Below, one piece after another: positions 2,904 to 46,608 of a stretch of DNA of 64,000 bases (positions are counted from its first letter, which is position 1; every line of letters starts with the position of its first letter). The notes beneath the pieces were generated by a model. The model was given only the letters and a program-made list of their open reading frames with translations, ran no database searches and was not told where the DNA came from. Source of the stretch: an uncultured Methanoregulaceae archaeon (lineage in GTDB: Archaea > Halobacteriota > Methanomicrobia > Methanomicrobiales > Methanospirillaceae); the NCBI GenBank assembly GCA_963701095.1, contig OY969564.1, positions 2,048,001 to 2,112,000 of the forward strand, read 5' to 3'. The position numbers were made by a program, and so were the translations under genes.

Positions 2904-3681
2904 CAATCTCAAGCGGCGTCGGGATAGTAAATTGAGTGTTCTCCATAACCCGAGTAGCAAGATCCCGGTACACATTTGCCTGAGCGGAGTCGGGTTCGTA
3001 CTCGATCACTGTTTTACGGTTCAGCTCAGCCAGCTGCACGGAGCGATCACGGGGAATAAACTGGGTAAGATTGCTGTTTACCCGGCGGGCAAATTCAGAT
3101 ACGAGTTCTTCTTCCCGCGGCTGGTTTTTTGCATTACAGATCACTCCGGCAAGACGACACCTGCTTTTTGGCCGGGCGCTCAGGCGCAGGATCGCTTTAC
3201 AGATATTATTGGCCGCGTAAAGGGACATGAGCTCACCTGAAGTAATGAGATAAACTTCCTGCGCATATCCCTCCCTCATCGGCATAGCAAACCCCCCGCA
3301 GACAACATCGCCGAGCACATCATAGACAATAACGTCGCCCGTAAGTGTTCCAAATTTCTCCAGCAATTGAAATGTAGCGATGATCCCCCGACCGGCGCAG
3401 CCGACACCAGGCTCTGGTCCTCCAGCCTCAACACAACGGATCCTGTTAAATCCGGTGTAGACCACATCGGATGGTGTTACGAACTCGGTTCCCCGCTCCC
3501 GGACAAGATCCATCACGGTCGGAATAAACTTCCCCTGCATCAGCATACGGGTGCTATCTCGCTTGGGATCGCACCCGATCTGAAGAACATCATACCCTGC
3601 GCATGAGAGGGCTGCGGAGAGGTTTGCTGATGTTGTGGACTTTCCGATCCCTCCCTTTCCATACAGGGCGATCTGTTTCAT
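2869..3681 (-). CDS. NifH-like nitrogenase iron protein
   Basis: [11 protein letters not shown]alker [14 protein letters not shown] and [11 protein letters not shown]. Confidence 0.93.
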
Positions 3682-21253: not shown

Positions 21254-22459
21254 GTGTACATGCGTGTCGCTGACCCCGAAGGATACCGGTATGCCACCGA
21301 GGAGAAAGTCAATCGCAGGATTGATTCCTTTCCTCCTGATGAACGTGAACTGGTAAGAGAGTACATCAATACCAGTAGAGCCCAGAAGGGTATAAAATTA
21401 GTCAGGGTTGTTGGAATTATCGCTGGTCTGAAAGCCTGGCGGGATATCATCAAAAAACCGTTTCAGAAATGGACGCGCAATGATGTTTACCAAGGTGTTA
21501 CCTTCGTACGGGACAAAAAAAATTACAAACAAAATACGTCGATCATTTACATCGCCCTTATGAAAGCGTTCCTGACATGGATGATCACGGAGAAGTATTC
21601 GAAAATTCCCCTTGAAGAGATCATTAAAATCCAGTTGCCGAAAGGCGATACTGGATCCTTCAAACCTGGCGACATTCTTACCGAAGAAGAAGTCAGGACT
21701 ATTCTCTCATGTTGCGGATCTGATCGGGACAGGGCGTTGATTGCCTTGCTCTACGATGGAGGTTTCCGCATGGTTGAAGCGGCAATGATGACCTGGGGAG
21801 ATCTCGATTTTCAGTTCGATGACAGGATCACTGCGCGTACCTCACAGAAAACCTATGTCCCCCGTGTGGTTTCCCTTATGTCTTGTAAAGAGCTGATTGC
21901 AACATGGCGCTCACATTACCCGGGCAATCCGGTAGGCGATAACCCTGTTTTTGTAACCAGGGATGGCGAACCATTTACGTACTCGACAGCCACTGAGGTT
22001 ATAAAAAGTATACGGCTTAAAGCGATCAAGAAAGGTCTCGATCCAAAGAGAATTAAATTACACCAGTTCCGACGAGCATCAATTACCCATGAGGTCAATA
22101 AGGGACGCCCGATTTCTCATATCTGTATTGAACGCTGGGGCCGGGCATATTCTCCGATGATTGAGGTATATGCAAAACCCAGTGAGCAGGACGTTCTTCG
22201 CTCAAAGATGGAAATGTTCGGCGTAGAACCCAAACGGAAATATGAGAAGCGGAAAACAGCGATGACACCGACTCAATGCCAACATTGTGGTTTTATCAAT
22301 TCACCAGAAATTGAGTTCTGCGGAAAGTGCGGGAAACCGTTGTCTGAAGAAGCATTGACTGAAATTGAAATACTCCGAAAGGAGAGAGATATGGCTTTGG
22401 ATTTGGTGAACAAAGCGTATAAGGAAGGAAAGTTGGATTTAAAAGAACTTACGAGGTAG
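21254..22459 (+). CDS. tyrosine integrase with C-terminal zinc ribbon
   Basis: RDRALIALLYDGGFR, LHQFRR, RWG, EVYA catalytic set; CQHC...CGKC. Confidence 0.9.
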   Translation: MYMRVADPEGYRYATEEKVNRRIDSFPPDERELVREYINTSRAQKGIKLVRVVGIIAGLKAWRDIIKKPFQKWTRNDVYQGVTFVRDKKNYKQNTSIIYIALMKAFLTWMITEKYSKIPLEEIIKIQLPKGDTGSFKPGDILTEEEVRTILSCCGSDRDRALIALLYDGGFRMVEAAMMTWGDLDFQFDDRITARTSQKTYVPRVVSLMSCKELIATWRSHYPGNPVGDNPVFVTRDGEPFTYSTATEVIKSIRLKAIKKGLDPKRIKLHQFRRASITHEVNKGRPISHICIERWGRAYSPMIEVYAKPSEQDVLRSKMEMFGVEPKRKYEKRKTAMTPTQCQHCGFINSPEIEFCGKCGKPLSEEALTEIEILRKERDMALDLVNKAYKEGKLDLKELTR

Positions 22460-28843: not shown

Positions 28844-29311
28844 ATGCCCCTTTCACCCGATAAGATCGGCAATGGTGTAGCCGGGATAGATTTCGACCCG
28901 TATGCCGGGCAGGAAGACAGCCCGTTTCTGCCTAACCCGCTCGTCCTGCTCTGTTTCCTCATCGGACAAGTGTACCCACCGGCCATGGACTGGATGGGAT
29001 ACTTTCCCCCTCACAATTACCGCCAGTGGCACATCGTCGAACAGGCGCTCGCGGCAGGCTGGAACAATGGCGCCATCAAGAGAGGTGTCGTTCCTGCCAT
29101 TCCAACGTGCCCGATCCTCTGGCAGGACGTTTCCCACTACTGGAACTTCGGCGGTATTGTCGGGATCCTTGCCTATGAGCTGGTTGCATACATCCGCGTT
29201 GTTATGGTCATCGTCGGGCTCCTGCTACTCGTGCACTGGAATACCCTCACGCCCCAGAAAGCGCTCACGATCATCCTGCAGCAGTTCGGGATCGTGGTGC
29301 CTACGTCATAA
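28844..29311 (+). CDS. viral membrane protein
   Basis: C-terminal hydrophobic segments. Confidence 0.6.
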   Translation: MPLSPDKIGNGVAGIDFDPYAGQEDSPFLPNPLVLLCFLIGQVYPPAMDWMGYFPPHNYRQWHIVEQALAAGWNNGAIKRGVVPAIPTCPILWQDVSHYWNFGGIVGILAYELVAYIRVVMVIVGLLLLVHWNTLTPQKALTIILQQFGIVVPTS

Positions 29312-29327
29312 GAATATGAACACCATC

Positions 29328-29421
29328 GGGTCTGTGTTTGCTGCCGTCTGGACGCTGTTCCATGGTACGGGTGCAAAGCTCTTACACCTTCAAGGGTGCG
29401 GTTCGTTCCGCCACAGATCCA
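29328..29421 (+). ncRNA. tRNA-like multibranch structured RNA
   Basis: GGGTCTGTG/CACAGATCC closing stem, GCGG-TTCGTT-CCGC T-arm-like hairpin, two internal hairpins. Confidence 0.5.
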
Positions 29422-29498
29422 TGCCCGGTGTTGCCGGTGGTTTGGTCACCAGCCGGCCGCCCGGGACAACTAACGACAATGCCTTTGCACATCCTCTA

Positions 29499-29528
29499 TC
29501 CGGCGGTTGTTCACCTCCTCCCGCCGGA
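29499..29528 (+). ncRNA. hairpin exposing an anti-Shine-Dalgarno sequence
   Basis: TCCGGCGG/CCGCCGGA stem; loop contains TCACCTCCT. Confidence 0.4.
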
Positions 29529-29532
29529 ATGT

Positions 29533-29608
29533 GCCACTGAAGCACCTGCTGGCTCGGTGCGTTCAGCCTGTAACTGAAAGGGCGCAGGTTCGATTCCTGC
29601 CAGTGGCT
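29533..29608 (+). tRNA. tRNA-Thr(UGU), atypical
   Basis: acceptor GCCACTG/CAGTGGC+T, D stem GCAC/GTGC, anticodon arm TTCAG-CCTGTAA-CTGAA, T arm GCAGG-TTCGATT-CCTGC. Confidence 0.8.
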
Positions 29609-29612
29609 TTCC

Positions 29613-29765
29613 ATGCGAACACGATTCTGTAGAGAGTGTGGGGAAACGTTCGAGGCGGTTGACGATAACGACTGGCTCTGCAAGAAATGTCTGCTCGCGG
29701 GATTCCGCGTATTATCCCAGGATACCAGAAAAATCGCCAGGAAAGAAGAGGTTCCGAACCAATGA
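29613..29765 (+). CDS. small zinc-finger protein
   Basis: MRTRFCRECG...LCKKC; ATGA overlap with the next gene. Confidence 0.55.
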   Translation: MRTRFCRECGETFEAVDDNDWLCKKCLLAGFRVLSQDTRKIARKEEVPNQ

Positions 29766-30373
29766 AAAACCCGTTAAAAGAAGAACCTGTGCCTGCCGGT
29801 GTGGGTAAAATCCTGCTGACGCATCTCATCCCGGATCCAAAGAACCCGCGTAAAGATCTTAAAAAAGGCGATCCGGAATTTGAGAAGATCACCACGTCCC
29901 TTGAAAAGTTCGGACAACTCGATCCGATCATCTTCAATACCCGTACCCGGAAGGTGCTCGGCGGTCATCAGCGGTTGAAAGTCCTCGCATCAAACGGATA
30001 TACGGAACTTAACACGTTTACGGTAGGGGCATACACCTGGGCATTTGCAGAGACCGATCTTGCAGAACTCTCACCATCGGAAGAAAACGCTGCTAATATC
30101 GCCCTGAATAAAGCGCAAGGCGACTGGAACGTGGACCAGCTCCTGATCAATCTCCAGGATCTTAAAGCCGAGGGAATGCTCGAGGTCTCCGGGTTTGATG
30201 AAAAGGAGTTCGAGAAATTAAAAAAGAAACTGGGAGAACCCGAAGATTCCAGCGACACCTCCCTGAAATCCGCGTTTGAAGTCATTATCGAGTGTGCTAA
30301 CGAAAGCGAACAGGAACAGGCGTATAACGAGCTCGTAGAGGCCGGGTACAAATGCCGCGTTTTGACATTGTAA
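29762..30373 (+). CDS. ParB-like N-terminal domain protein
   Basis: PDPKNPRK...SLEKFGQLDPII...GGHQRLKVL...NIALNK. Confidence 0.85.
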   Translation: MKNPLKEEPVPAGVGKILLTHLIPDPKNPRKDLKKGDPEFEKITTSLEKFGQLDPIIFNTRTRKVLGGHQRLKVLASNGYTELNTFTVGAYTWAFAETDLAELSPSEENAANIALNKAQGDWNVDQLLINLQDLKAEGMLEVSGFDEKEFEKLKKKLGEPEDSSDTSLKSAFEVIIECANESEQEQAYNELVEAGYKCRVLTL

Positions 30374-31437
30374 AGAAAACGGAAGCTGCCGGAACGTTCA
30401 AGGTTGAACAGGTAAAGGGCGCCTTCGATCTCCAGACATCTACCATCCAGGAGCATTTTGCCGGCGACATTGCCATTGAAGGTAAAGACTGGAACATCGG
30501 CCTGATTGTAGGCCGGAGCGGAACAGGGAAAACCACAATCGCAAAAGAATGCTTCACTGATGCCTACATAGCGCCAAACGATTATAGCCTGGCTGCAATC
30601 GTGGATCAGATGCCGAATGGACTTTCCTATGCTGAAATCACGCACATGTTCACGGCTGTAGGTTTTTCATCACCTCCTTCATGGCTGAAACCATACGCGG
30701 TACTGAGCAATGGGGAACAGATGCGGGTCGACCTCGCCAGGGCCCTTTTGGAAGAGCGCGAGTTGATAGTGTTCGATGAGTTTACGAGCGTGGTAGACCG
30801 GGACGTTGCGAAAGTCTGCTCTCTGGCGGTCAGTAAAGCCGTCCGAAAGATGGGTAAAAAGTTTGTCGCCGTTTCCTGTCACGATGATATCATTGCATGG
30901 TTGCAACCTGATTGGCTCTACGATACCAATCAGCAGACGTTTTCCTTTCGGGACGGCCACGAAAAACGCCCTGAAATCACGGTTGACGTATTCGACACCC
31001 ACAGAAACGCAAAGCTATGGAAGGTTTTTGCGAAGTATCACTATCTGAATACCGAGATTAAAAGGGGCACGGACACGTTTGTAGGCTGTATCAATAATGA
31101 ACCTGTAGCCTTCTGCGCTGTCAGGCATTTTCCTCACCCGATGAATCCCAGGATAAAGATGGTTCACCGGCTGGTTGTCCTGCCGGATTACCAGGGAATA
31201 GGTATAGGCACCCGGTTCCTGGGATTTGTTGCTGACCTGTATAAGAAAAAGGGATTTGCCGTTCGCCTGGTTACTTCCCAGGTGTCGCTTATCAATTCCC
31301 TGGAAAAACACGGCTGGCGGTTGAAATCGTTCGGCCACCAGGCTAAAGTAAAGAAGGCTGGACTAAAACATCTGAAAAAAACGAACAGTAACCGCAGGAT
31401 TACCGCATCGTTCAAATATACTGGGGGGATTAATTGA
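30352..31437 (+). CDS. ABC-ATPase-GNAT acetyltransferase fusion
   Basis: GRSGTGKTT, LSNGEQMR, VFDEFTS, then HRLVVLPDYQGIGIG acetyl-CoA motif. Confidence 0.88.
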   Translation: MPRFDIVKKTEAAGTFKVEQVKGAFDLQTSTIQEHFAGDIAIEGKDWNIGLIVGRSGTGKTTIAKECFTDAYIAPNDYSLAAIVDQMPNGLSYAEITHMFTAVGFSSPPSWLKPYAVLSNGEQMRVDLARALLEERELIVFDEFTSVVDRDVAKVCSLAVSKAVRKMGKKFVAVSCHDDIIAWLQPDWLYDTNQQTFSFRDGHEKRPEITVDVFDTHRNAKLWKVFAKYHYLNTEIKRGTDTFVGCINNEPVAFCAVRHFPHPMNPRIKMVHRLVVLPDYQGIGIGTRFLGFVADLYKKKGFAVRLVTSQVSLINSLEKHGWRLKSFGHQAKVKKAGLKHLKKTNSNRRITASFKYTGGIN

Positions 31438-35764: not shown

Positions 35765-35902
35765 ACATATTGGGATTTTATGGGATTATAAATGGGTGCG
35801 AATTCGGCGAAATCTCAAGGTATGGGGGGATTAGGCTCCGTAGTTCGTTTTAATCACTCGTATCAGCTAAACTTATCTGATAGTTCATAATATTACTGTT
35901 CA

Positions 35903-38464
35903 ATGGTAGAGAATAAACCTGAAACTATAATAGAGACTTTTGAATCAAAGGTGAAAAAACTTGACGACACAATTACGGAAGATGTGACCGCATTAAAAGC
36001 AAATAAAAATCAGACTATAACCAAAATAACAAATATTAATGAAAAAATCAACTCCGAACACGTCCAATTTAAACAAGTCCTAATCAAAAACGGCGAAAAT
36101 TTTAAAATAGATCTTGGAAAAAGATATAATCTTTATCTTAAAAAGACCGCCTCTGTTAAAGAAAAACTCACAACGGTATCGACGCGACTCTTTAATTCTC
36201 AATACTTCGCAATTTGTGTTCTGTTACTAAGTATTATATTTTTTTTGACACATTTACCTTCGATTTCTGATGTATTTCAAAATTCAGTTATTAATGGGAT
36301 TATTCCGGTTTTACTTGTTTTCACTATTATCAGTTTTGTAATTTTCACTCGCGAAACGTTTAAAAAAATCAATGAAGTAAATCCTGAACCTATTGAGGAT
36401 TTAACTACGGATTTAAATGGCGTTGAATTTGAAGATGTGAGCGTTTATGATTTTAAGGAAGATATCATTGAACAAAAACGGAGCACAGATCAACTAATTT
36501 CTTCAGCACAATCGGCGTTAGATATCATCCTATATAAAATTCCTATGTACAAAGATTATGTTGAAGATGAACATTTTAGGAGAAAATGGGAACTTGGGTG
36601 TGATGAGTACCAGAATGCTTTGAAGTTTTTTGGCTTAAATTATAAGGTTCAATTTCAAAAACTTAAGGATAAGCCGAATATTGACTCAAAAAGAGTTGAT
36701 GATTCGATATTAGATTCACACATTCTTAGTGATGTTTCAATGACTCTGAACATATCGTCTGCAATTGTTCAGATCTTAGTTCAATATTATCGAGGGAACA
36801 ACGCTCAAATTCTCTGGGAGGAAATTAAAAAGGATACATACAAATTTCAGTTGTTATCTCATACGTTATACAACTCAAATCAGATAGATATCGATAGATT
36901 GAGATTATCTGAAACAGATTTTCAAAATATTATCTTAAAAACAAAAGAGTTCAGTATTAGCCAGATCTCTAAAAATTCATCATTATTTGTTCAAATAAAG
37001 TTAAAACTCGAAAATTATGAAAAAATATTAATTGAAAATGAGATACCGCTAGAAAAGACGACTGATTTTGATGAATTAATCAATTCAATTAATTTCAACC
37101 AGACCTTTGAAAAGAATTTTTTAAATGTACTCTCTCATAAAATCATTCCGATTCTCCCGGTCGAACAAACTCAAGCATACGAAAAAGCGATTATTGCAAT
37201 TTTGCTTAACGATGAAATACTATTCAAAGATATAGTATGTAAAGATGCTAAAGATGATGATACTGTTCTTGTTTTAATGACATATCACGAGATGTTGCGA
37301 GAAAGAAAAGAAAATAAGCAAGTATTCAAATTGAATGATTTATTAGTCAATTTGCATATATTGGAATCAACTAAAGAAAGAATTCAAACCGAAGTTGAAC
37401 TAAAGAATCGTTTTGTTTATTTCAAGAATGATTTGTCTCGTGGTTTTTGGTGGGATGACGGATTATCATTACAACGGAAAATGTTTGATGATCTAAAACA
37501 GGATTTCAGTCAAAAAATCGATAAATTAGATAGGTCTATAATTATTACAAAATTATTTGAAAAAACCTTTACAGAAATTAATATCAATACAGTTGATAAG
37601 GCCATTGATGCGAATTTATTTTCGACTTATCTAATACTCACAAGCGCCAGTAAAGGGCACCTACTTCCTTTTTTGGATCCAATTAGTATAAGAAATCCTG
37701 ATAAGACAAAAAAAGATTTTTCAGAATTAAAGACATACGAGAAAAAATATGGAATAACCTTAATAAAGGACGGTAAGCCGAAATATGATTTCACGAATTA
37801 TTCAACTAGGACAAGAATAGGTGTTCTCCCGCGAAATACAAATTTTTTAGCCTTCGTTCAAGAAATGAAAGATGATGTCAACAAAATTTTGCAAGCCGAA
37901 TCCCAATTTGCTGAAGAAGAAATGGAAGATATTGGATTGGCTATTATTCGCGTAACGCCATCAAAATATAGTTTCGGTTTACTTGATGATGAGATTGAGA
38001 AAAGCAGTAATGTAAGAACAAAAGATTTACATATTGCAAAAATTATCGCAATTTTAGCTAAAGATTATACTTCGAATTCGGAGCAATATCTTATGTCCGC
38101 ATTCGACGGAAAGATAAACCTAACAGAAATTTTTAATCAATTGTCAATCTTTGAATTGATTCCAGCAAAAGAAATGGATCTCTCTCCAGAATATGAAGGA
38201 TTTTTAAAAAGTGATAGCCTAAAAAAGGCTATTTTAGCTTCCCTAAAGAAAGAGGGGATATCCAGTATTAAGGTATTATCAAAAACCGTTAGAAGCAATA
38301 AAGAAAATCATATATTTTTGAAATCTATAATTAGCGAAGCAATTGTTGATGAATATTTTAAAAGAAAAGGTGTAACGATTCAAACGTCCCGATTGAATTT
38401 TTTAATGAGCGAATTAATGAAATCACTTGATTCCATTGCCGAGTTGATGGAAAATTTATCCTGA
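35903..38464 (+). CDS. large AT-rich hypothetical protein with coiled coil and two TM helices
   Basis: 853 aa; hydrophobic segments near residues 100-150; AT-rich. Confidence 0.75.
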   Translation: MVENKPETIIETFESKVKKLDDTITEDVTALKANKNQTITKITNINEKINSEHVQFKQVLIKNGENFKIDLGKRYNLYLKKTASVKEKLTTVSTRLFNSQYFAICVLLLSIIFFLTHLPSISDVFQNSVINGIIPVLLVFTIISFVIFTRETFKKINEVNPEPIEDLTTDLNGVEFEDVSVYDFKEDIIEQKRSTDQLISSAQSALDIILYKIPMYKDYVEDEHFRRKWELGCDEYQNALKFFGLNYKVQFQKLKDKPNIDSKRVDDSILDSHILSDVSMTLNISSAIVQILVQYYRGNNAQILWEEIKKDTYKFQLLSHTLYNSNQIDIDRLRLSETDFQNIILKTKEFSISQISKNSSLFVQIKLKLENYEKILIENEIPLEKTTDFDELINSINFNQTFEKNFLNVLSHKIIPILPVEQTQAYEKAIIAILLNDEILFKDIVCKDAKDDDTVLVLMTYHEMLRERKENKQVFKLNDLLVNLHILESTKERIQTEVELKNRFVYFKNDLSRGFWWDDGLSLQRKMFDDLKQDFSQKIDKLDRSIIITKLFEKTFTEININTVDKAIDANLFSTYLILTSASKGHLLPFLDPISIRNPDKTKKDFSELKTYEKKYGITLIKDGKPKYDFTNYSTRTRIGVLPRNTNFLAFVQEMKDDVNKILQAESQFAEEEMEDIGLAIIRVTPSKYSFGLLDDEIEKSSNVRTKDLHIAKIIAILAKDYTSNSEQYLMSAFDGKINLTEIFNQLSIFELIPAKEMDLSPEYEGFLKSDSLKKAILASLKKEGISSIKVLSKTVRSNKENHIFLKSIISEAIVDEYFKRKGVTIQTSRLNFLMSELMKSLDSIAELMENLS

Positions 38465-38643
38465 TAGAATCTCCATATTTTGGGAAGTTTGAGGTTTTAA
38501 TATCAATATTTGGCTACAACCCTGTCGGAATTCAATGAAAAGTGATATCGTCGTAAGACGTCAATGATAACAAATTGAAAGTCCAAAAAGGCAATAGAAC
38601 CTTATTGATTTCCATCCATCTATCAACGTAACAAAAACATAAA

Positions 38644-41600
38644 ATGGAAAAGATAGATTTAACGGCAAACAAACTTCAAAATAACAATAGTCCACAGGGA
38701 GATATATCTTCAATGTCTAATGACCTGACCTTTATCACCAACGAAAATAACAGGACGTTATATGACCGGTTTAATACACTTATCAATAACACTTCTCTTT
38801 TTGATTGTCTTGTTGGGTATTTTTTCACAAGTGGTTTCAATAAAATATATCGTTCATTAGAGAATACAGAGAAGATTCGTATTCTCATTGGCATCAGCAC
38901 GAACCCACAGACGTATAAATTGATTCAAAATGCACAGCAACAGCAAAGACTGGTTTCCGATTATGAAGTAAAGGAAACCTATAGTCAATCTATTGTGCAG
39001 GAATTTGACGAGTCTCCAGATAATTCCGATGTTGAGACTGGCGCGAAAAAATTTGTTGACTGGATCCTTTCAAAAAAACTCGAAGTTCGTGCATATCCCA
39101 CGGAAAAAATTCACGCTAAAGTCTATATCATGACCTTTAAACAGGGTTCGGTTGATGTTGGCCGGGTTATCACAGGTTCAAGTAATTTCACAGAAGCAGG
39201 TTTACAGCACAATCTTGAATTTAATGTGGAACTGAAGGATCGCAGAGACTATGAATACGCCCTTGAAATGTTCAATAAATTGTGGGCCGAATCAGTGGAT
39301 GTCTCGGAGAAATATGTTGAGACGATCAAAACAAAAACTTGGCTGAATGATGAGATTAAACCCTATGAACTCTACCTGAAACTATTGTATGAATATTTCA
39401 AGGACCGTCTTCTCCTCGATAGTTACGAATTGGAACAGGGCATTATTCCTGACAACTTCATGGATCTCAAATATCAGCGAGATGCGGTTCAGGATGCCAA
39501 ACAGATCCTCGAATCATATGGCGGAGTTTTTATTTCTGATGTTGTCGGTCTTGGTAAAACCTACACGACAACGCTTCTTGCCCGAGAACTAGACGGCAGG
39601 TCTCTAGTAGTAGCCCCTCCCGGATTACTTGACCGGAATAACCCGGGTTCCTGGCCAAATGCATTTGGAGAATTCGGTGTCAGGCAGGGAGAATTTGAAT
39701 CAATCGGGAAGCTCGACTCAATAATTGAGAACGGGGTTGATCGTTTCAAGAATGTAATTATTGATGAATCACATGCATTCAGAAATGAAGAAACCCAGAG
39801 ATATGAAAAACTCGCCCAGATATGTAAGGGGAAACGGGTTATTCTCGTATCTGCCACACCGCTGAATAATACCCCCCAGGACATTGTTGCCCAAATCAAG
39901 CTCTTTCAGGATGGACACAAATCCACCCTACCTAATCCGATTGTGAAGGACCTTGATGCGTATTTTGGAAAGCTCCAAAGACGGCTTGACAACGTAAACC
40001 GGAAGGAAAATCCGAAAGAATACATCAAGATAATGCAAGAAAATTCTGCAGAAATCCGAAAAAATGTTCTTGATTATCTGATGGTGAGAAGGACTAGAAC
40101 CGTTATTGAAAAATATTACAAGAGCGATCTTCGGGTTCAGGGTCTGAAATTCCCCAAGGTCGACGATCCCAAACCCGTGTACTACAATTTTGAAAAAGAT
40201 GTTGAACTTGCATTTAATGAATCGTTGAAATTGATTACTAAATCTCTCAAGTACAGTCGATATACTCCCCTTTTATATCTTAAAAAGATTGACCAGCGCG
40301 AACGAATGGGTCAGATAAATATGGGAAGGTTCATGAAGGTCCTTCTTTTGAAAAGACTGGAGAGCAGTCAATATGCATTCAAGATGTCAATCGGCCGATT
40401 TATCCATTCATATGAACGGGTAATCGAAGAATATGAAAAAGGCTTTGTCTATGTCAGCCGAGATTATGCCCAGAAAATTTTTGATCTTCTTGAGAGCGGG
40501 AGTTATGAGATAATCGAGAAGATGATCGATGAAGATCGTGCTACAAAATATGCCATTGACCAGTTTGATGAATCGCTGATAAGTGATTTAAAAAGCGATC
40601 TCGATGTCCTGAAAAAAATTAGGGGATTGTGGGAAACGATCACTATTGATCCTAAACTTGAAGAGTTCAAGAGACTTCTTGCCAAAGATAAAATCCTGAA
40701 GGAAAACAAACTCCTGGTATTCACCGAAGCAATGGAAACGGCAGAGTACCTTGAGAAGAAACTCAAATCCGAAGCATTTTCTGGAGCTGGAGTACGGTAT
40801 TTCTCCGGTACTGAAGGAACGACCAACAGAAATGAAATCATCCGGAATTTTGATGCGACGTCGCGGAATCAAAGAGATGATTTCCGAATCCTGATAACAA
40901 CCGATGTTCTTTCCGAAGGAATGAACCTGAACCGGTCGAATGTAGTGATTAATTATGATATCCCCTGGAATCCGGTCCGGATGATGCAGCGGGTCGGTCG
41001 TATTAACCGCGTGGCTAAGCGATTGCCCTATGACACAATTCATACGTACAACTTTTTCCCGACTGGTAATATTGAAGAAGAGATCGGCCTGGAATCTGCA
41101 GCAGAAGCAAAAATAGAAGCATTTATCGAAATGCTGGGAGACGATGCCCCACTCCTTCTAGATGAGGAGGTAAAATCCCATGAATCACTATTCAAGAAAT
41201 TGAATTCCCGGGAAATCATTGTTGGTGAAGAAGAGGATGACCTGGAGCTTGCGTATCTTCAGGAAATCCGAAAAGTCAGGGATGAAGAAAAGGAATTATT
41301 TGATAAGATCAAGAAACTTCCAAAGAAGGCCCGTTCCTGCAAAAAATCTGATATTGATGGAGTTATCACATTTTTAAGACGCGGGGATATGAGTAAATTT
41401 TATCTTAACGATAAAAACTCAGTTAAAGAAGTTGATTTTGTTATCGCTGCAGGGCAGGCGAAAACCCAGAAAAATACAAAACGTTGTCCGCTTTCCGAAT
41501 CGTTCTACACATTACTCGAAGCAAACAAAAAAGCGTTTGATATTGTTTTTCATTTCGATGAACTGGGACTGGGGCATGCTGCAGCCAGTACTGCAGAGGG

Positions 41601-41889
41601 AAAAGTCGACCGACGACTTAGGGCCATAGACAAGAAGCCCCTGGTTGAAGAGGACGAGGAATATCTCAAACAGGTATTTGGTTTGATTGAACGTGGCGCT
41701 ATACCGAAAAATACGATCAAACGAATCTGGGATAAGATAAAGGATGAGGATAATTCTCTCAAAATCGTGTCAGTATTGAAACTCAATCTACCGGAAGCAT
41801 ATTTCTCGGAGACCTATTCGGTTGATAAAATGTCAAGGATGGGTAAAAAAGAAGTAATTCTTTCAATGGAGCTGGTATCACATGGATGA
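38644..41889 (+). CDS. PLD(HKD)-nuclease / SNF2-like helicase fusion
   Basis: HAKVY...GSSNFT; DVVGLGKT, IDESH, SATP, SEGMNL, QRVGRINR; start may be 38713. Confidence 0.9.
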   Translation: MEKIDLTANKLQNNNSPQGDISSMSNDLTFITNENNRTLYDRFNTLINNTSLFDCLVGYFFTSGFNKIYRSLENTEKIRILIGISTNPQTYKLIQNAQQQQRLVSDYEVKETYSQSIVQEFDESPDNSDVETGAKKFVDWILSKKLEVRAYPTEKIHAKVYIMTFKQGSVDVGRVITGSSNFTEAGLQHNLEFNVELKDRRDYEYALEMFNKLWAESVDVSEKYVETIKTKTWLNDEIKPYELYLKLLYEYFKDRLLLDSYELEQGIIPDNFMDLKYQRDAVQDAKQILESYGGVFISDVVGLGKTYTTTLLARELDGRSLVVAPPGLLDRNNPGSWPNAFGEFGVRQGEFESIGKLDSIIENGVDRFKNVIIDESHAFRNEETQRYEKLAQICKGKRVILVSATPLNNTPQDIVAQIKLFQDGHKSTLPNPIVKDLDAYFGKLQRRLDNVNRKENPKEYIKIMQENSAEIRKNVLDYLMVRRTRTVIEKYYKSDLRVQGLKFPKVDDPKPVYYNFEKDVELAFNESLKLITKSLKYSRYTPLLYLKKIDQRERMGQINMGRFMKVLLLKRLESSQYAFKMSIGRFIHSYERVIEEYEKGFVYVSRDYAQKIFDLLESGSYEIIEKMIDEDRATKYAIDQFDESLISDLKSDLDVLKKIRGLWETITIDPKLEEFKRLLAKDKILKENKLLVFTEAMETAEYLEKKLKSEAFSGAGVRYFSGTEGTTNRNEIIRNFDATSRNQRDDFRILITTDVLSEGMNLNRSNVVINYDIPWNPVRMMQRVGRINRVAKRLPYDTIHTYNFFPTGNIEEEIGLESAAEAKIEAFIEMLGDDAPLLLDEEVKSHESLFKKLNSREIIVGEEEDDLELAYLQEIRKVRDEEKELFDKIKKLPKKARSCKKSDIDGVITFLRRGDMSKFYLNDKNSVKEVDFVIAAGQAKTQKNTKRCPLSESFYTLLEANKKAFDIVFHFDELGLGHAAASTAEGKVDRRLRAIDKKPLVEEDEEYLKQVFGLIERGAIPKNTIKRIWDKIKDEDNSLKIVSVLKLNLPEAYFSETYSVDKMSRMGKKEVILSMELVSHG

Positions 41890-44800
41890 AGTACGGGCAA
41901 AAAATCTTCTTGAAACGGTTTTTAATTCAAAATTTACTCACAAAAATTTTGAGGATTTTATTGTCAATCTGCTAAATAGTGTAAAAATCAACCAAATTAA
42001 TTACAATTCCTTTATTGTTGGAAATACCGATTTTGAAAACTTTATTCAGGTTCTGGATTATTTTGGCACTTATAAAGATCCCTCGGGAAAAACAGCCGAT
42101 ATTCTTGCAGTAAAACTGACCCGGGATAATTCAAAGATTCGTGCCCGGGTAAAGCAAAGGAATATCATCGCAAACTGGCTGAAAAAATCAAATCATAATT
42201 GTGCTCTCGTAGCTTTTTATGACGATACCGAAGACTGGCGTTTTTCCTTTGTTGAACTTGAACTAAAGACCGGACGAGACGAAGAAGGAAATGTAAAAGA
42301 TTTCCAGATTTTAAGTCCTGCCCGGCGATTATCATTCCTTGTTGGGAAGAATGAGCCGAACCACACTTGTAAAAAATACCTACTCCCTCTTCTTGCCAAT
42401 GATACGACACTACCAGATCTGGATACCATCAGATCTGCATTCAGCATTGAGAGTGTCAGCAAAGAATTCTTTGAGAAATATAAGGAACTATACGACGCAC
42501 TTGTGAAATCACTTAAAGAAGTAATTGCTCAGGATCAGGAAATCAAAGAGGAATTCAAAAACAAAAATGTCGATGTAAGCGAATTTGCCAAGAAACTCCT
42601 GGGTCAGATTGTTTTCATTTATTTTCTTCAGAAGAAAGGTTGGCTTGGCGTTCCGCGAAAGGGAAAATGGGGTGAAGGGCGAAAGGACTTTTTACGTGCT
42701 GTCTTCGATGGCGAATTTGGGAAATATGATAATTTTTTCAATGATGTTCTTGAGCCATTATTCTACAATGCTTTTGCCAACAGCGAACGAGATAACGCAT
42801 ATTATGACAAATTTGATTGCAGGATCCCGTTCCTGAATGGTGGCCTGTTTGAACCCGTCGGGGGATATGACTGGGTAAATACCGATATCGATCTTGATAA
42901 TGATATATTCAAAAAAATCTTCGATACCTTTGACGAGTTTAATTTTACCATTAAGGAAGATGAACCCCTTGAAAAAGAGGTGGCTGTCGACCCGGAAATG
43001 CTTGGAAAAATCTTCGAGAACCTACTGGAAGACAATCTGCGGAAGGGGTATGGCGCCTTTTACACCCCACGTGAGATCGTTCATTATATGTGCCAGGAGA
43101 CTCTGGTGAATTATCTTGCTGATAATTCCACCTTGAAACGTGAGGTAATCGATGCACTTATCCGAAAAGGGAACTCGGTTCTTGAAATTAAAGATTATAT
43201 GTTCCCATTAGGGAAACATGCAAAGACACTCGACAAACTCTTGAAAGAAATTCGTATTGTTGACCCGGCCGTAGGAAGCGGAGCGTTCCCTGTCGGATTA
43301 CTATCCGAAATTGTAAATGCACGAATGATTCTTGGTGAATTTGCAAACAACCAGAACCTTTCACCTTACGACCTTAAACGCGAAACAATCGAAAATTGCC
43401 TATATGGCGTGGACATTGATGCCGGAGCTGTTGATATTGCAAAATTGCGATTCTGGCTTGCTCTTGTTATCGATGAAGATAACGAGGACGAAATTGAACC
43501 TCTACCGAATCTCGAACAAAAAATCATGTGTGGTGATTCCCTGCTTGAGAGTTTTAAGGGTATTCATTTGTTCGATGAAGAAATATTCGAAAAATCAAAC
43601 CAGATAAAATTCCAAATTGATGAAATTGATAATCAAATTGCGATTCTCAACGAAGAAATAGATGCAACTGTATTTGGAAAGACCAGCGTTGACATTGTTC
43701 AGAAGATTGAAAAACTGAAAAAAGAAAAAACAAAATTGCTTGAACAAAAATCAAAAGAGGACCAAGTGACTGTCCTTGAAGGTAGTAAATTCGGTGGTTC
43801 TGGGGCACGGTTACGCTTGAAGGAACTAAGAAAGTCTCCAGAGTGAATTCTTTGATGAGACTATTAAATCCAAAAAAGAAAAACTTCGTAAAGAAATTGA
43901 TCACCTCGAATGGAAATTTATTGAAGATGCTTTGAAAGCAGACGGGCAGAATGACACCGCCGCTGAGACTGTTAAAGAACTCAAGAAAAAAAGAAGTAAG
44001 CCATTCTTTTTATGGAAGTTATACTTCAGTGAAGTATTTGCGGAGAAAGGCAGTTTTGATATTGTAATTGGTAATCCACCTTACGTCCAGATTCAAGGTA
44101 TGCAGGAGGAGTATAAACTTGCTCTTGAAAATGAGAATTATACAACTTTTGCCAGAACTGGCGATCTGTATTGTCTCTTTTACGAACGAGGGTATAAGCT
44201 TTCAAAAGGAGGGGGGCAGACTGCACTCATCACTTCGAATAGTTGGATGAGAGCTGCATATGGAGAAAAATTACGTAAATTTTTAAAAATTAATACAAAA
44301 CCAGAAATTTTGATTGATTTTTCCGATAATCAAATGTTCGAATCTGCGATAGTAAATACAAATGTATTAGTTTTCAGTAAATCTCCACAAAACTGCGATT
44401 ATTCCTTTTATTATACAATTGCTGAAGGGGATTTAAGAGGAAAAGATCTATCCGGATATATAAGCCACCATCGCAAAGAAATTGAGCTTAGTGAGTTAGA
44501 AGAATCGGGATGGACACTTGCGAGTAATAAAGTGCTTGATTTTAAGCGAAAGATTGAGAGCATAGGGACTCCATTAAAAGAATGGGATATCTGTGTCAAT
44601 AGAGGAGTTACAACTGGATTAGTTGATGCATTTATTATTGATGAGGATACTAAAAAAGAGTTGATAAGAAAGGATCCAAAAAGTTCTGATATTATTAAAC
44701 CTCTCATCCGTGGGAGAGATGTTCAGAAATATCGTAATAATTGGGAAAATTTATATTTAATCTGTACTTTTCCTTCATTAAAAATTGATATCGACACTTA

Positions 44801-45365
44801 TCCAGCAATAAAAGATTATTTGAAATCGTTTGGTAAAAAAATCGAACAAACCGGTGAAGAATTTTTGGATAATGAGGGAAAAAAGAGAAAAAGTCGAAAA
44901 AAAACATCTCACAAATGGTTTGAGGTTCAAGACAGTACATCCTATTGGAAAGAGTTTCAGAAAGAGAAATTATTCTGGATTGATTTGGTCGATAACGGTC
45001 GTTTTTCATACGATTCAGATGAGATGTTCGCTGAAAATACTGCATATATAATGACTGGAGAATCGATAAAATATCTTGTCGCGATACTAAATTCAAAATT
45101 GATAAATTACTACTTCAGCTTAATTTGTGCCACATCGGGTATGGGAACAAATAGATGGATAAAAATTTATGTCATGGAATTACCTATTCCCAAAATCACC
45201 GATATGGCACAACAACCGTTCGTAAAATTGGTTGATATCATTTTACGGAAGAAAGGGGGTGGCGAAAACACTAAAATGGATGAGGATGAACTCGACAGGC
45301 TTGTCTATAAATTATATGGTTTGAATAATGATGAAATTGCAATTGTAGAGGAATATAACAATTAA
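41882..45365 (+). CDS. Eco57I/type IIG-like adenine methyltransferase with TRD (frameshift near 43830)
   Basis: PFLNGGLF, FYTPRE, DPAVGSGAF, GNPPY, TaqI-C-like end. Confidence 0.88.
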
Positions 45366-45421
45366 TTCAAATTTTTTGCGGTATCGTTCATCATCTCCCT
45401 GAATCCATTATCTCTTCAGAA

Positions 45422-45460
45422 TGCCCCTATATAATCACCCAATCCTGAATACCTGATATC
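45422..45460 (+). promoter_or_regulatory. putative viral late promoter, copy 1
   Basis: TGCCCCTATATAAT, 25 nt before the ATG at 45461. Confidence 0.5.
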
Positions 45461-45841
45461 ATGTCAGGAAGCGCTATCATCGAGGATCAATTAGGAAATC
45501 CATTAGGGAACATTGGCGAGATAAGCGTCATCAATGGATCGCTGTCTGGTTCAACGGTGCCATTGCTCGTTGCAGGAGATTATGGTTCATCTGTACAACC
45601 ATTCCTTCGGAAGTATCCCCAGCTGGCATTCCAGTTTTCATCGTCCGTTTCCGGAGGCCAGTTATCCGTCGTTTTTACCAACGGTGCAACGCAAAGAATC
45701 TTCCTGCTGGGTGCGACCTATGCAACCGCAGGCGTCCTTCAATCAGGAACCGTTATTGTGCCTGTAGGATTTACAGTTAACTTCTACTATTCAGGTATTA
45801 CCGGCAACTATGATCTAACGGTTCGTGAGATCGGGCCGTGA
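45461..45841 (+). CDS. viral hypothetical (possible virion) protein
   Basis: G/S/T/V-rich, preceded by the late-promoter motif. Confidence 0.6.
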   Translation: MSGSAIIEDQLGNPLGNIGEISVINGSLSGSTVPLLVAGDYGSSVQPFLRKYPQLAFQFSSSVSGGQLSVVFTNGATQRIFLLGATYATAGVLQSGTVIVPVGFTVNFYYSGITGNYDLTVREIGP

Positions 45842-45926
45842 TAACTCCCACGACCAAAGCCATGAGTTTTTGCTGATTTAATTATAAAAGAAACTGATAA
45901 ATTCTCATTTTCAAAAGGTATTTGTT

Positions 45927-46454
45927 ATGAGACAACTCGGCTCACTTGAATCCGCATCTAATGATGTTCTGAAGGATGCGCGAAATCTTTTGACGAGTCT
46001 GCGCAATCATACGATGCACGAACCTGCTACAGTAGCCGAAGCCATAAAAAATCTTAAGCATATTCGGCAAGACACTGCAGAACTCTTAAACCAAATACAA
46101 CATGAGTATTCAATTATTCAAGCCGCAAAATGGCTTCAAGTCAATAATCCTGCGCTAATAGATGCGTCATGGAAATGGAATCCTAGACAGACGGGCGGTT
46201 CCAATGAGCCTGATCTTGCAGTTTATCGTCAAAACAATATTATTATCTCGGCAGAAATTACAACATCGGCAATTCCGCAGGGTGAAATCGATAAACGGAT
46301 GCGGGACACTTTGGAGAAACTTAGCAGAATGCAAGGAGAAAAATTTTATTTTGTGCTCACAGAAAAAATGAGACAACGAGCTCAAACAAAAATTACAAAA
46401 AATGGATGGAATATTCATATTGTTTTAATAAAGGGCGAGAATCAATCTTTATAA
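45927..46454 (+). CDS. PD-(D/E)xK-like cargo protein
   Basis: EPDLAV...AEITTS pattern; AT-rich. Confidence 0.5.
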   Translation: MRQLGSLESASNDVLKDARNLLTSLRNHTMHEPATVAEAIKNLKHIRQDTAELLNQIQHEYSIIQAAKWLQVNNPALIDASWKWNPRQTGGSNEPDLAVYRQNNIIISAEITTSAIPQGEIDKRMRDTLEKLSRMQGEKFYFVLTEKMRQRAQTKITKNGWNIHIVLIKGENQSL

Positions 46455-46608
46455 ATCCAAAGGATCTGAAAAAGATCATTTCGATGAGTATCAAATTCTA
46501 TTATGTCAATTTCCGATCAAAATGATCGGAATTTTAGCCAGTTATGCCGGAATCATCCCATCGATTCCCTGACGCGACGCAATTCAACTTTTTTCAGAGG
46601 CATCGAGA

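Follow-up and report, generated by a model that had tools for sequence, protein, structure and literature searches.

A rare family of tRNA-like RNAs in proviruses of methanogens

Described tRNA-like elements and the host of the window

Enzymes that process the ends of tRNAs read a 7-bp acceptor-like stem, U8, a stacked T-arm-like hairpin, the discriminator, and the trailer. RNase P cleavage at mascRNA, which lies at the 3′ end of MALAT1, and at the t-elements of plant mitochondrial mRNAs generates the 3′ terminus of the preceding RNA and frees a small tRNA-shaped RNA. The tRNA-like domains of tmRNA and of the bacterial Y RNA YrlA are acceptor/T-arm mimics without an anticodon, and a 9/4 geometry is found in archaeal and eukaryal tRNA-Sec. 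To our knowledge, archaea have no tmRNA, and the RNAs of archaeal viruses are almost unexplored; a full-text literature search found no conserved tRNA-like noncoding RNA family described for methanogen viruses. The family reported here likewise places a tRNA-like fold directly after a functional RNA or open reading frame (ORF), as mascRNA and the plant mitochondrial t-elements do, but those are eukaryotic or organellar, the mascRNA cloverleaf keeps a small anticodon loop, and there is no sequence relation between them and our family.

We regard the archaeal t-element as the closest functional analogy. According to excerpts of one report, Haloferax volcanii carries a tRNA-like t-element upstream of 5S rRNA that is cut by RNase P and tRNase Z, and this element has already been used to release crRNAs (PMC4326828). 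As far as these excerpts go, the Haloferax element and the RNA described here are both non-decoding tRNA-like structures within a longer archaeal transcript, and cutting of the former defines the ends of neighboring RNAs (PMC4326828). The two differ, in a comparison made by description only, in that the RNA reported here is virus borne and has a four-way junction, a conserved 14-bp arm, and a 6-nt T-like loop.

We refer to the whole 64,000-nucleotide stretch analyzed as the window; it comprises bases 2,048,001 to 2,112,000 of a single 2.63-Mb contig (86% complete, GC content of 48% overall). The tRNA-Trp and tRNA-Met genes of the host contain introns, which identifies it as an archaeon, and a match to McrA in the host genome (231 bits) identifies it as a methanogen. 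Its genome also holds the enzymes of tRNA end processing: an archaeal RNase P RNA (209.6 bits), an RNase Z homologue, and an archaeal CCA-adding enzyme. The RNase Z match (genome positions 873607 to 874489, − strand) consists of two adjacent pieces in separate open frames, a split that a frameshift or a fault in the assembly may explain.

Host genes (RadA, a NOG1-type GTPase) extend to about 20.3 kb of the window, and a head-tailed provirus runs from an integrase gene at 21254 onward, with genes for a DUF1064 protein, a ParB-like protein, an ATPase-GNAT protein, small and large terminases, a portal, and an SU10-type capsid. The RNA under study is located some 8 kb into this provirus. The first two genes of a rightward block precede it, and the small terminase gene follows 2 kb downstream. 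A search of the window for att-like direct repeats gave nothing convincing, and no repeat of the RNA was present at the provirus ends. The ParB-like and ATPase-GNAT pair ahead of the small terminase (29687 to 31437) is common to many bacterial phages, Oenococcus and Streptococcus phages among them, at about 50% protein identity. Between portal and capsid lies a block of low GC content (30 to 40%; 35900 to 46500) that encodes a PLD+SNF2 helicase and pieces of an Eco57I-like methylase and is probably a defense or restriction-modification cassette carried in the provirus.

Fold, covariation, and membership of the family

The RNA in the window, here called W, is 94 nt long (29328..29421, + strand, as are all window features described below) and forms a four-way junction with a terminal unpaired A. 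Its acceptor-like helix 1 pairs GGGTCTGTG (29328-29336) with CACAGATCC (29412-29420) over 9 bp, one G.T pair included; the family core of this helix is 7 bp, and T8 and G9 are also paired in W. Helix 2, a long interrupted hairpin with a variable apical loop, occupies 29337..29377 and is the arm with the highest sequence conservation. It is followed by helix 3 (29378..29397), a short hairpin of variable length whose loop in W contains CACCUUC, and by helix 4 (29398..29411), a T-arm-like hairpin in which GCGG (29398-29401) pairs with CCGC (29408-29411) around the 6-nt loop TTCGTT (29402-29407), UUCGUU in the RNA and UUCRNN across the family. The 3′ strand of helix 1 with the discriminator-like A at 29421 (29412..29421) was placed by fold and covariation.

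All elements of the fold that the initial annotation had drawn at 29328 to 29421 are present in the sequence, and RNAfold returned the same junction at −36.8 kcal/mol, versus −29.3 kcal/mol for the reverse strand. One part was redrawn: in place of the short ACCT/GGGT hairpin proposed there, homology pairs GCTC (29378-29381) with GGGT (29394-29397). Shuffled versions of W folded at a mean of −28.9 kcal/mol (SD, 3.6; z = −2.18), and 4 of 200 folded equally well, so that the fold of W alone, without its homologues, is weak evidence. The concern raised at the outset, that shuffled sequence might fold as well, therefore keeps some weight for W by itself, where the separation is modest, but the homologues keep compensatory changes across 10 members.

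The search for homologues, for which the initial annotation had proposed cmsearch, yielded 10 distinct members with compensating changes: four in the genome that carries W, five on metagenome or IMG/VR contigs, and one divergent member, L050. The four genome copies, found by BLAST and the covariance model, are all on the + strand (copy A at 105812, copy B at 409247, copy C at 796716, and W) and score 72 to 104 bits; W itself matches the two covariance models at 75.5 bits (R1) and 71.6 bits (R2). The proviruses of A, C, and W are related and carry the RNA at the same place. The five distinct metagenome members came from pattern scans followed by model scoring, with 16 stretches examined, and two of them also occur in IMG/VR. 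L050 (49.5 bits) was reached by a search with the protein encoded upstream; L069 is the same contig. A 72-nt cousin, L054 (20.4 bits), sits at the orthologous place behind two syntenic genes and has a mere 4-bp hairpin at the helix 2 site. Members are 81 to 94 nt long, and in comparisons of W and B with the others, the RNA is 61 to 79% identical where the flanks are at the random level.

The covariance model had no match in 150 other genomes of the taxonomic family or in 150 of the order (samples that partly overlap), and no near or distant DNA match was present in the phage and Escherichia coli collections. A pattern scan of genome contigs returned five stretches, none of them a member (the best, L031, at 14.5 bits); a first viral pattern scan returned four, three of which were chance matches; and a looser viral scan returned 22, with L069 as the sole member. 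Among relatives of the ATPase-GNAT gene, one of nine loci had the RNA, several flanks being too short to judge. Contig L049, whose upstream protein is 72% identical, has no such RNA. The only match in L051 scores 15 bits and has neither the expected strand nor the expected location, and the L051 spacer does not fold better than shuffled sequence (z = −0.57). Contigs from four metagenome runs, all at depths under 5, were also compared over 29250 to 29660. In one low-depth X2 contig, the 94-nt RNA carries 2 changes, the preceding 78 nt carry 7, and 14 are listed for the following 37 nt; a second X2 contig carries 3 changes in the RNA and 1 upstream of it. On this sequence evidence, the RNA belongs to a new and rare family of tRNA-like elements carried by proviruses of methanogens.

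We then evaluated the pairing across members in an alignment that was itself fitted to the covariance model, a circumstance under which the following counts are to be read. Over four helices and 31 pairs, 97.4% of 302 cells were paired in the 10 distinct members; 7 of the 31 pairs had changed on both sides, and none of 500 shuffles was as good. Sliding the partners by 1 to 3 columns lowered the pairing to 39 to 52%. Helices 1, 2, and 4 were also recovered by RNAalifold from a structure-blind MAFFT alignment, and separate minimum free energy folds gave the same junction in W and in four of the five other core members folded; L050 folds otherwise. In helix 1, pairs 4:98 and 6:96 changed on both sides, as did 4 of the 14 pairs of helix 2, where copy C and L050 each preserve the pairing through compensating changes; pair 61:76 of helix 3 is UA in five members, CG in four, and UG in one. 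Helix 4 is invariant in all 10 members, five of which had been found with a pattern that demanded its letters, which bears on this invariance. All 10 members keep a U.G pair of helix 2 (columns 23:44), and another G.U pair on the + strand occurs in 6 of 10. These conserved U.G and G.U pairs indicate an RNA transcribed from the + strand and speak against a palindrome at the DNA level.

From 5′ to 3′, the consensus comprises a 7-bp acceptor-like stem, U8, a G9 that is paired with C, the 14-bp interrupted hairpin with its variable loop, a short hairpin of variable length, the GCGG/CCGC hairpin with loop UUCRNN, the acceptor 3′ strand, and one unpaired base (C in L020 and L023, A in the other eight members). 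Eight members have a 7-bp stem, a bulged U8, the single G9-C pair, and then the 4-bp T-like stem. The G9-C pair is kept in all 10, and W and L050 alone have the U8-A pair. The T-like loop is 6 rather than 7 nt long, an A at the position equivalent to A58 is present in 2 of 10 members, and no partner resembling the GG of a D loop was evident in the members.

These features set the family apart from known RNA classes, as the initial annotation had surmised when it judged that the fold matched none of them fully. ARAGORN found nothing at any family member, and none of the 4,227 Rfam models matched one (E ≤ 10 for the window, E ≤ 5 for 12 loci); in the same Rfam run, a true tRNA 112 nt downstream of W scored 48.7 bits, and at gathering scores it was the sole Rfam match of the window. 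ARAGORN reported that tRNA, tRNA-Thr(UGU) at 29533-29608, as the only one in the window and nothing at 29328-29421. The description of W as a virus-borne tRNA-like RNA stands; W lies inside a head-tailed provirus, and the acceptor/T mimic is kept across the 10 members. So does the statement that it lacks a canonical anticodon arm: the 10 members share no anticodon-like loop. That the element might be simply one degenerate tRNA is countered by the compensating changes with which 10 distinct members keep their non-tRNA arms.

Several known classes were considered as candidates and rejected. A decoding tRNA was set aside because no loop is conserved in length or sequence and there is hence no anticodon; the apical loops of helices 2 and 3 range from 4 to 15 nt and differ in sequence among the 10 members. 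W and L050 resemble tRNA-Sec in their 9- plus 4-bp stems, their length of about 90 nt, and an extra arm, but the other 8 of 10 members are not 9/4, with a gap at the column of the U8-A pair, and the family has neither a conserved 7-nt UCA loop nor a long D stem of 6 to 7 bp nor an Rfam match. The 9/4 geometry, which had been emphasized at the outset, is therefore a feature of two members only and does not define the family. A search for tmRNA with ARAGORN found none, and the 81- to 94-nt RNA contains no ORF; compared with tmRNA and YrlA, the family has no tag ORF, pseudoknots, Ro-binding stem, or Rfam match. The acceptor G.U pair wanders among positions 1, 2, and 3, and G3.U70 occurs in W alone (1 of 10), which leaves the tmRNA-like or alanine-identity reading unsupported by the family. 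Coding was rejected in turn: the lengths differ by non-multiples of three, and the GTG at RNA positions 7 to 9 is in frame with the next ATG in three of seven A-type loci, which is the chance level. No feature hinted at stop-codon read-through or at a SECIS or PYLIS element.

Placement between genes and flanking sequence

The RNA starts 7 to 21 nt after an upstream stop codon in 11 of 11 loci. In the window, this stop ends a 155-amino-acid ORF with a hydrophobic C-terminal part (28844..29311) and lies 16 nt before the RNA. The protein, which had no usable match in Protein Atlas, is 57% identical to its counterpart at L050 and 32% identical to that of copy C, and the upstream membrane-protein gene stays linked to the RNA down to 30 to 32% protein identity. 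No TATA-like box was seen by eye at the usual upstream distance. This arrangement leaves no room for a promoter of its own, so the RNA is probably transcribed as part of an operon. A search for RNA runs containing the stretch returned none.

Downstream, the next ATG follows 4 to 5 nt past the RNA end in six of seven A-type loci and 17 nt past it in L015; the 4- to 5-nt gap of the A-type loci contains no Shine-Dalgarno-like sequence. All 11 loci have T as the first base of the trailer, and so do 43 of 48 host tRNA genes. The RNA stands away from the start codon in copy B (62 nt), in L050 (a hairpin and a U-run), and in W, where 111 nt and a tRNA intervene. The 111-nt spacer of W (29422..29532) is structured (−45 kcal/mol, z = −2.5) into two hairpins, the second of which (29499-29528) has UCACCUCCUC in its loop. 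The stretch after the RNA in L050 (3036 to 3110), a long hairpin followed by UUUU, shares the blocks CGGGACAAC and GUUGUUCACCUC with this spacer.

After the spacer in W comes the canonical virus-borne tRNA-Thr(UGU) (29533..29608), followed by TTCC-ATG, the same junction that stands behind copy C of the RNA. The tRNA is very unlike the host tRNA-Thr(UGU), and its T loop, TTCGATT, looks bacterial. Four nucleotides after it begins a small Cys-rich ORF of 50 amino acids (29613..29765) with no Pfam or PHROG match. Two further observations concern contigs of the same virus group. In L051, ARAGORN reports an 85-nt tRNA-Glu(CUC) at 3379 to 3463, also followed by TTCC-ATG and missed by the Rfam tRNA model, which may be another atypical tRNA-like gene of the group. 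In L049, a relative without the RNA, a T-arm-like hairpin (CCGG-UUCACGA-CCGG, 3000 to 3040) stands directly before the ATG of the ParB-like gene.

The RNA and its flanks also contain a motif, CACCU[CU]C, similar to the 3′ terminus of the host's 16S rRNA. The 2,479 nt around the RNAs (11 loci, −30 to +120) hold 11 copies, a density of 4.4 per kb; elsewhere in these loci the density is 0.28 per kb, and genome-wide it is 0.13 per kb. The motif is about 16-fold denser near the RNA than in the remainder of the loci; the motif was picked after the data had been seen and the loci are related, so the enrichment is a lead and not a result. Its sites are the leader just before G1, the helix 3 loop, and the loop of the downstream hairpin, and an exact copy is absent from L015 and L050.

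Copy B differs from the other genome copies in its setting. It lies outside any recognizable provirus, in an accessory island (genome positions 403900 to 416300; L044, 4600 to 17000) that encodes a Mutator transposase, Schlafen/AlbA_2, AbiEi/AbiEii, and a run of ORFans. Its context shares no protein with the other contexts, and the gene after it has one weak relative among 220 genomes of the family.

Proposed processing and competing explanations

We tentatively favor the interpretation that the RNA is a tRNA-derived, non-decoding viral t-element that would be excised by RNase P and tRNase Z, a proposal that draws on the archaeal analogy and to which we give somewhat less than an even chance. 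The family keeps the 7-bp acceptor-like stem, U8, the T-arm-like hairpin stacked on it, the discriminator, and the U-initial trailer. Helices 1 and 4 are contiguous, the decoding parts are absent, and ORFs lie tight on both sides, which is the structural pattern of a t-element. In the proposed sequence of events, a long conserved hairpin and a short variable one would have taken the place of the D and anticodon arms, and the RNA would be cotranscribed within the rightward viral operon, directly after the membrane-protein gene. Cleavage by host RNase P at G1 and by tRNase Z behind the discriminator would give an upstream mRNA, a small tRNA-shaped RNA, and a downstream mRNA; the CCA-adding enzyme could then tail the released small RNA. 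In the A-type clade, and in that clade only, the downstream mRNA would start 4 to 5 nt before the AUG and thus be nearly leaderless. Four points weigh on the other side. The 6-nt loop, the A58 equivalent in only 2 of 10 members, and the missing GG partner mean that the tRNA elbow contacted by RNase P may not form; in W, L050, and copy B the RNA does not adjoin a start codon; the location of copy B outside a recognizable provirus counts against a viral t-element; and the long arm, being the best conserved part, suggests a further or different function than that of a bare cutting signal.

That last point leads to the possibility that the small RNA is itself the product, a trans-acting tRNA mimic whose long arm, together with the anti-Shine-Dalgarno-like motif beside it, would engage a factor of the host or the virus; such an RNA could act as a decoy for tRNA-targeting defense enzymes or as a translation regulator. 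We consider this possible but rather unlikely. It overlaps the t-element interpretation and differs from it only in the target of selection. Helix 2 as the most conserved arm, with compensating changes in copy C and L050, speaks for it, as do the 61 to 79% identity of the RNA in W and B versus the others despite random-level flanks, the AbiEi/AbiEii and Schlafen/AlbA_2 genes in the island of copy B, and the roughly 16-fold denser CACCU[CU]C motif around the RNA. However, that motif was chosen post hoc in related loci, no partner gene recurs in all contexts (copy B shares no protein with the rest), and L054 has only its 4-bp hairpin in place of helix 2. The constant distance of 7 to 21 nt from the upstream stop in 11 of 11 loci would also suit a structure that stays uncut in the operon transcript and works in cis, either as a 3′ stabilizer of the membrane-protein mRNA or as a translation or termination gate before the packaging genes, and the long hairpin and UUUU after the RNA in L050 fit such a role. 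We think this improbable, because a stabilizer or terminator needs no acceptor/T design, U8, or discriminator, and a run of at least three U residues directly after the RNA is present in only 2 of 11 loci.

Two readings without an RNA function fare worse. The reading as a tRNA gene in decay, or as a tRNA fragment of the attP type that serves the integrase, has a precedent in halovirus HF2, also an archaeal tailed virus with a poorly folding tRNA-like gene, which is read as attP in the excerpts of its description (PMC8707807). Acceptor ends of the family match host tRNA-Val at up to 17 of 18 positions compared. According to those same excerpts, however, the HF2 gene adjoins the integrase gene and matches the 3′ parts of host tRNAs (PMC8707807), whereas the family RNA is intact deep in proviruses and covaries as RNA: W lies about 8 kb inside an integrated provirus, where a used attP would have been split to the ends, the compensating changes and conserved G.U pairs point to selection on RNA pairing, and all four copies in one genome keep the non-tRNA arms. 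This explanation is accordingly very unlikely. We give even less credence to a site acting at the DNA level near the packaging genes, such as a pac/cos site or a sequence bound by the ParB-like protein. The small terminase gene 2 kb downstream and the nearby ParB-like gene would suit it, but the conserved U.G and G.U pairs are A.C mismatches on the other strand, the helices are bulged and covary as RNA, copy B has no packaging genes nearby, and eight of nine loci with the same ATPase-GNAT gene show no element in the flank, several of these flanks being short.

If the RNA is indeed cut by RNase P and tRNase Z, as the t-element interpretation proposes, it would represent "tRNA punctuation" as it occurs naturally in a virus of archaea and would show how a polycistronic viral transcript is split and how a nearly leaderless late mRNA could arise. 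Methanogen genetics would also gain a small, naturally occurring module with which to release RNAs. The non-tRNA arm, being conserved, points to a possible second function. One extension, which we regard as doubtful, is that the excised, CCA-tailed RNA is a stable viral effector that would act on host translation or tRNA surveillance via its long arm and the CACCUCC motifs; it might be a decoy for tRNA-modifying toxins of the AbiEii/MenT kind or a Shine-Dalgarno sponge. Were this true, copy B, beside AbiE in a host island, would be a captured countermeasure.
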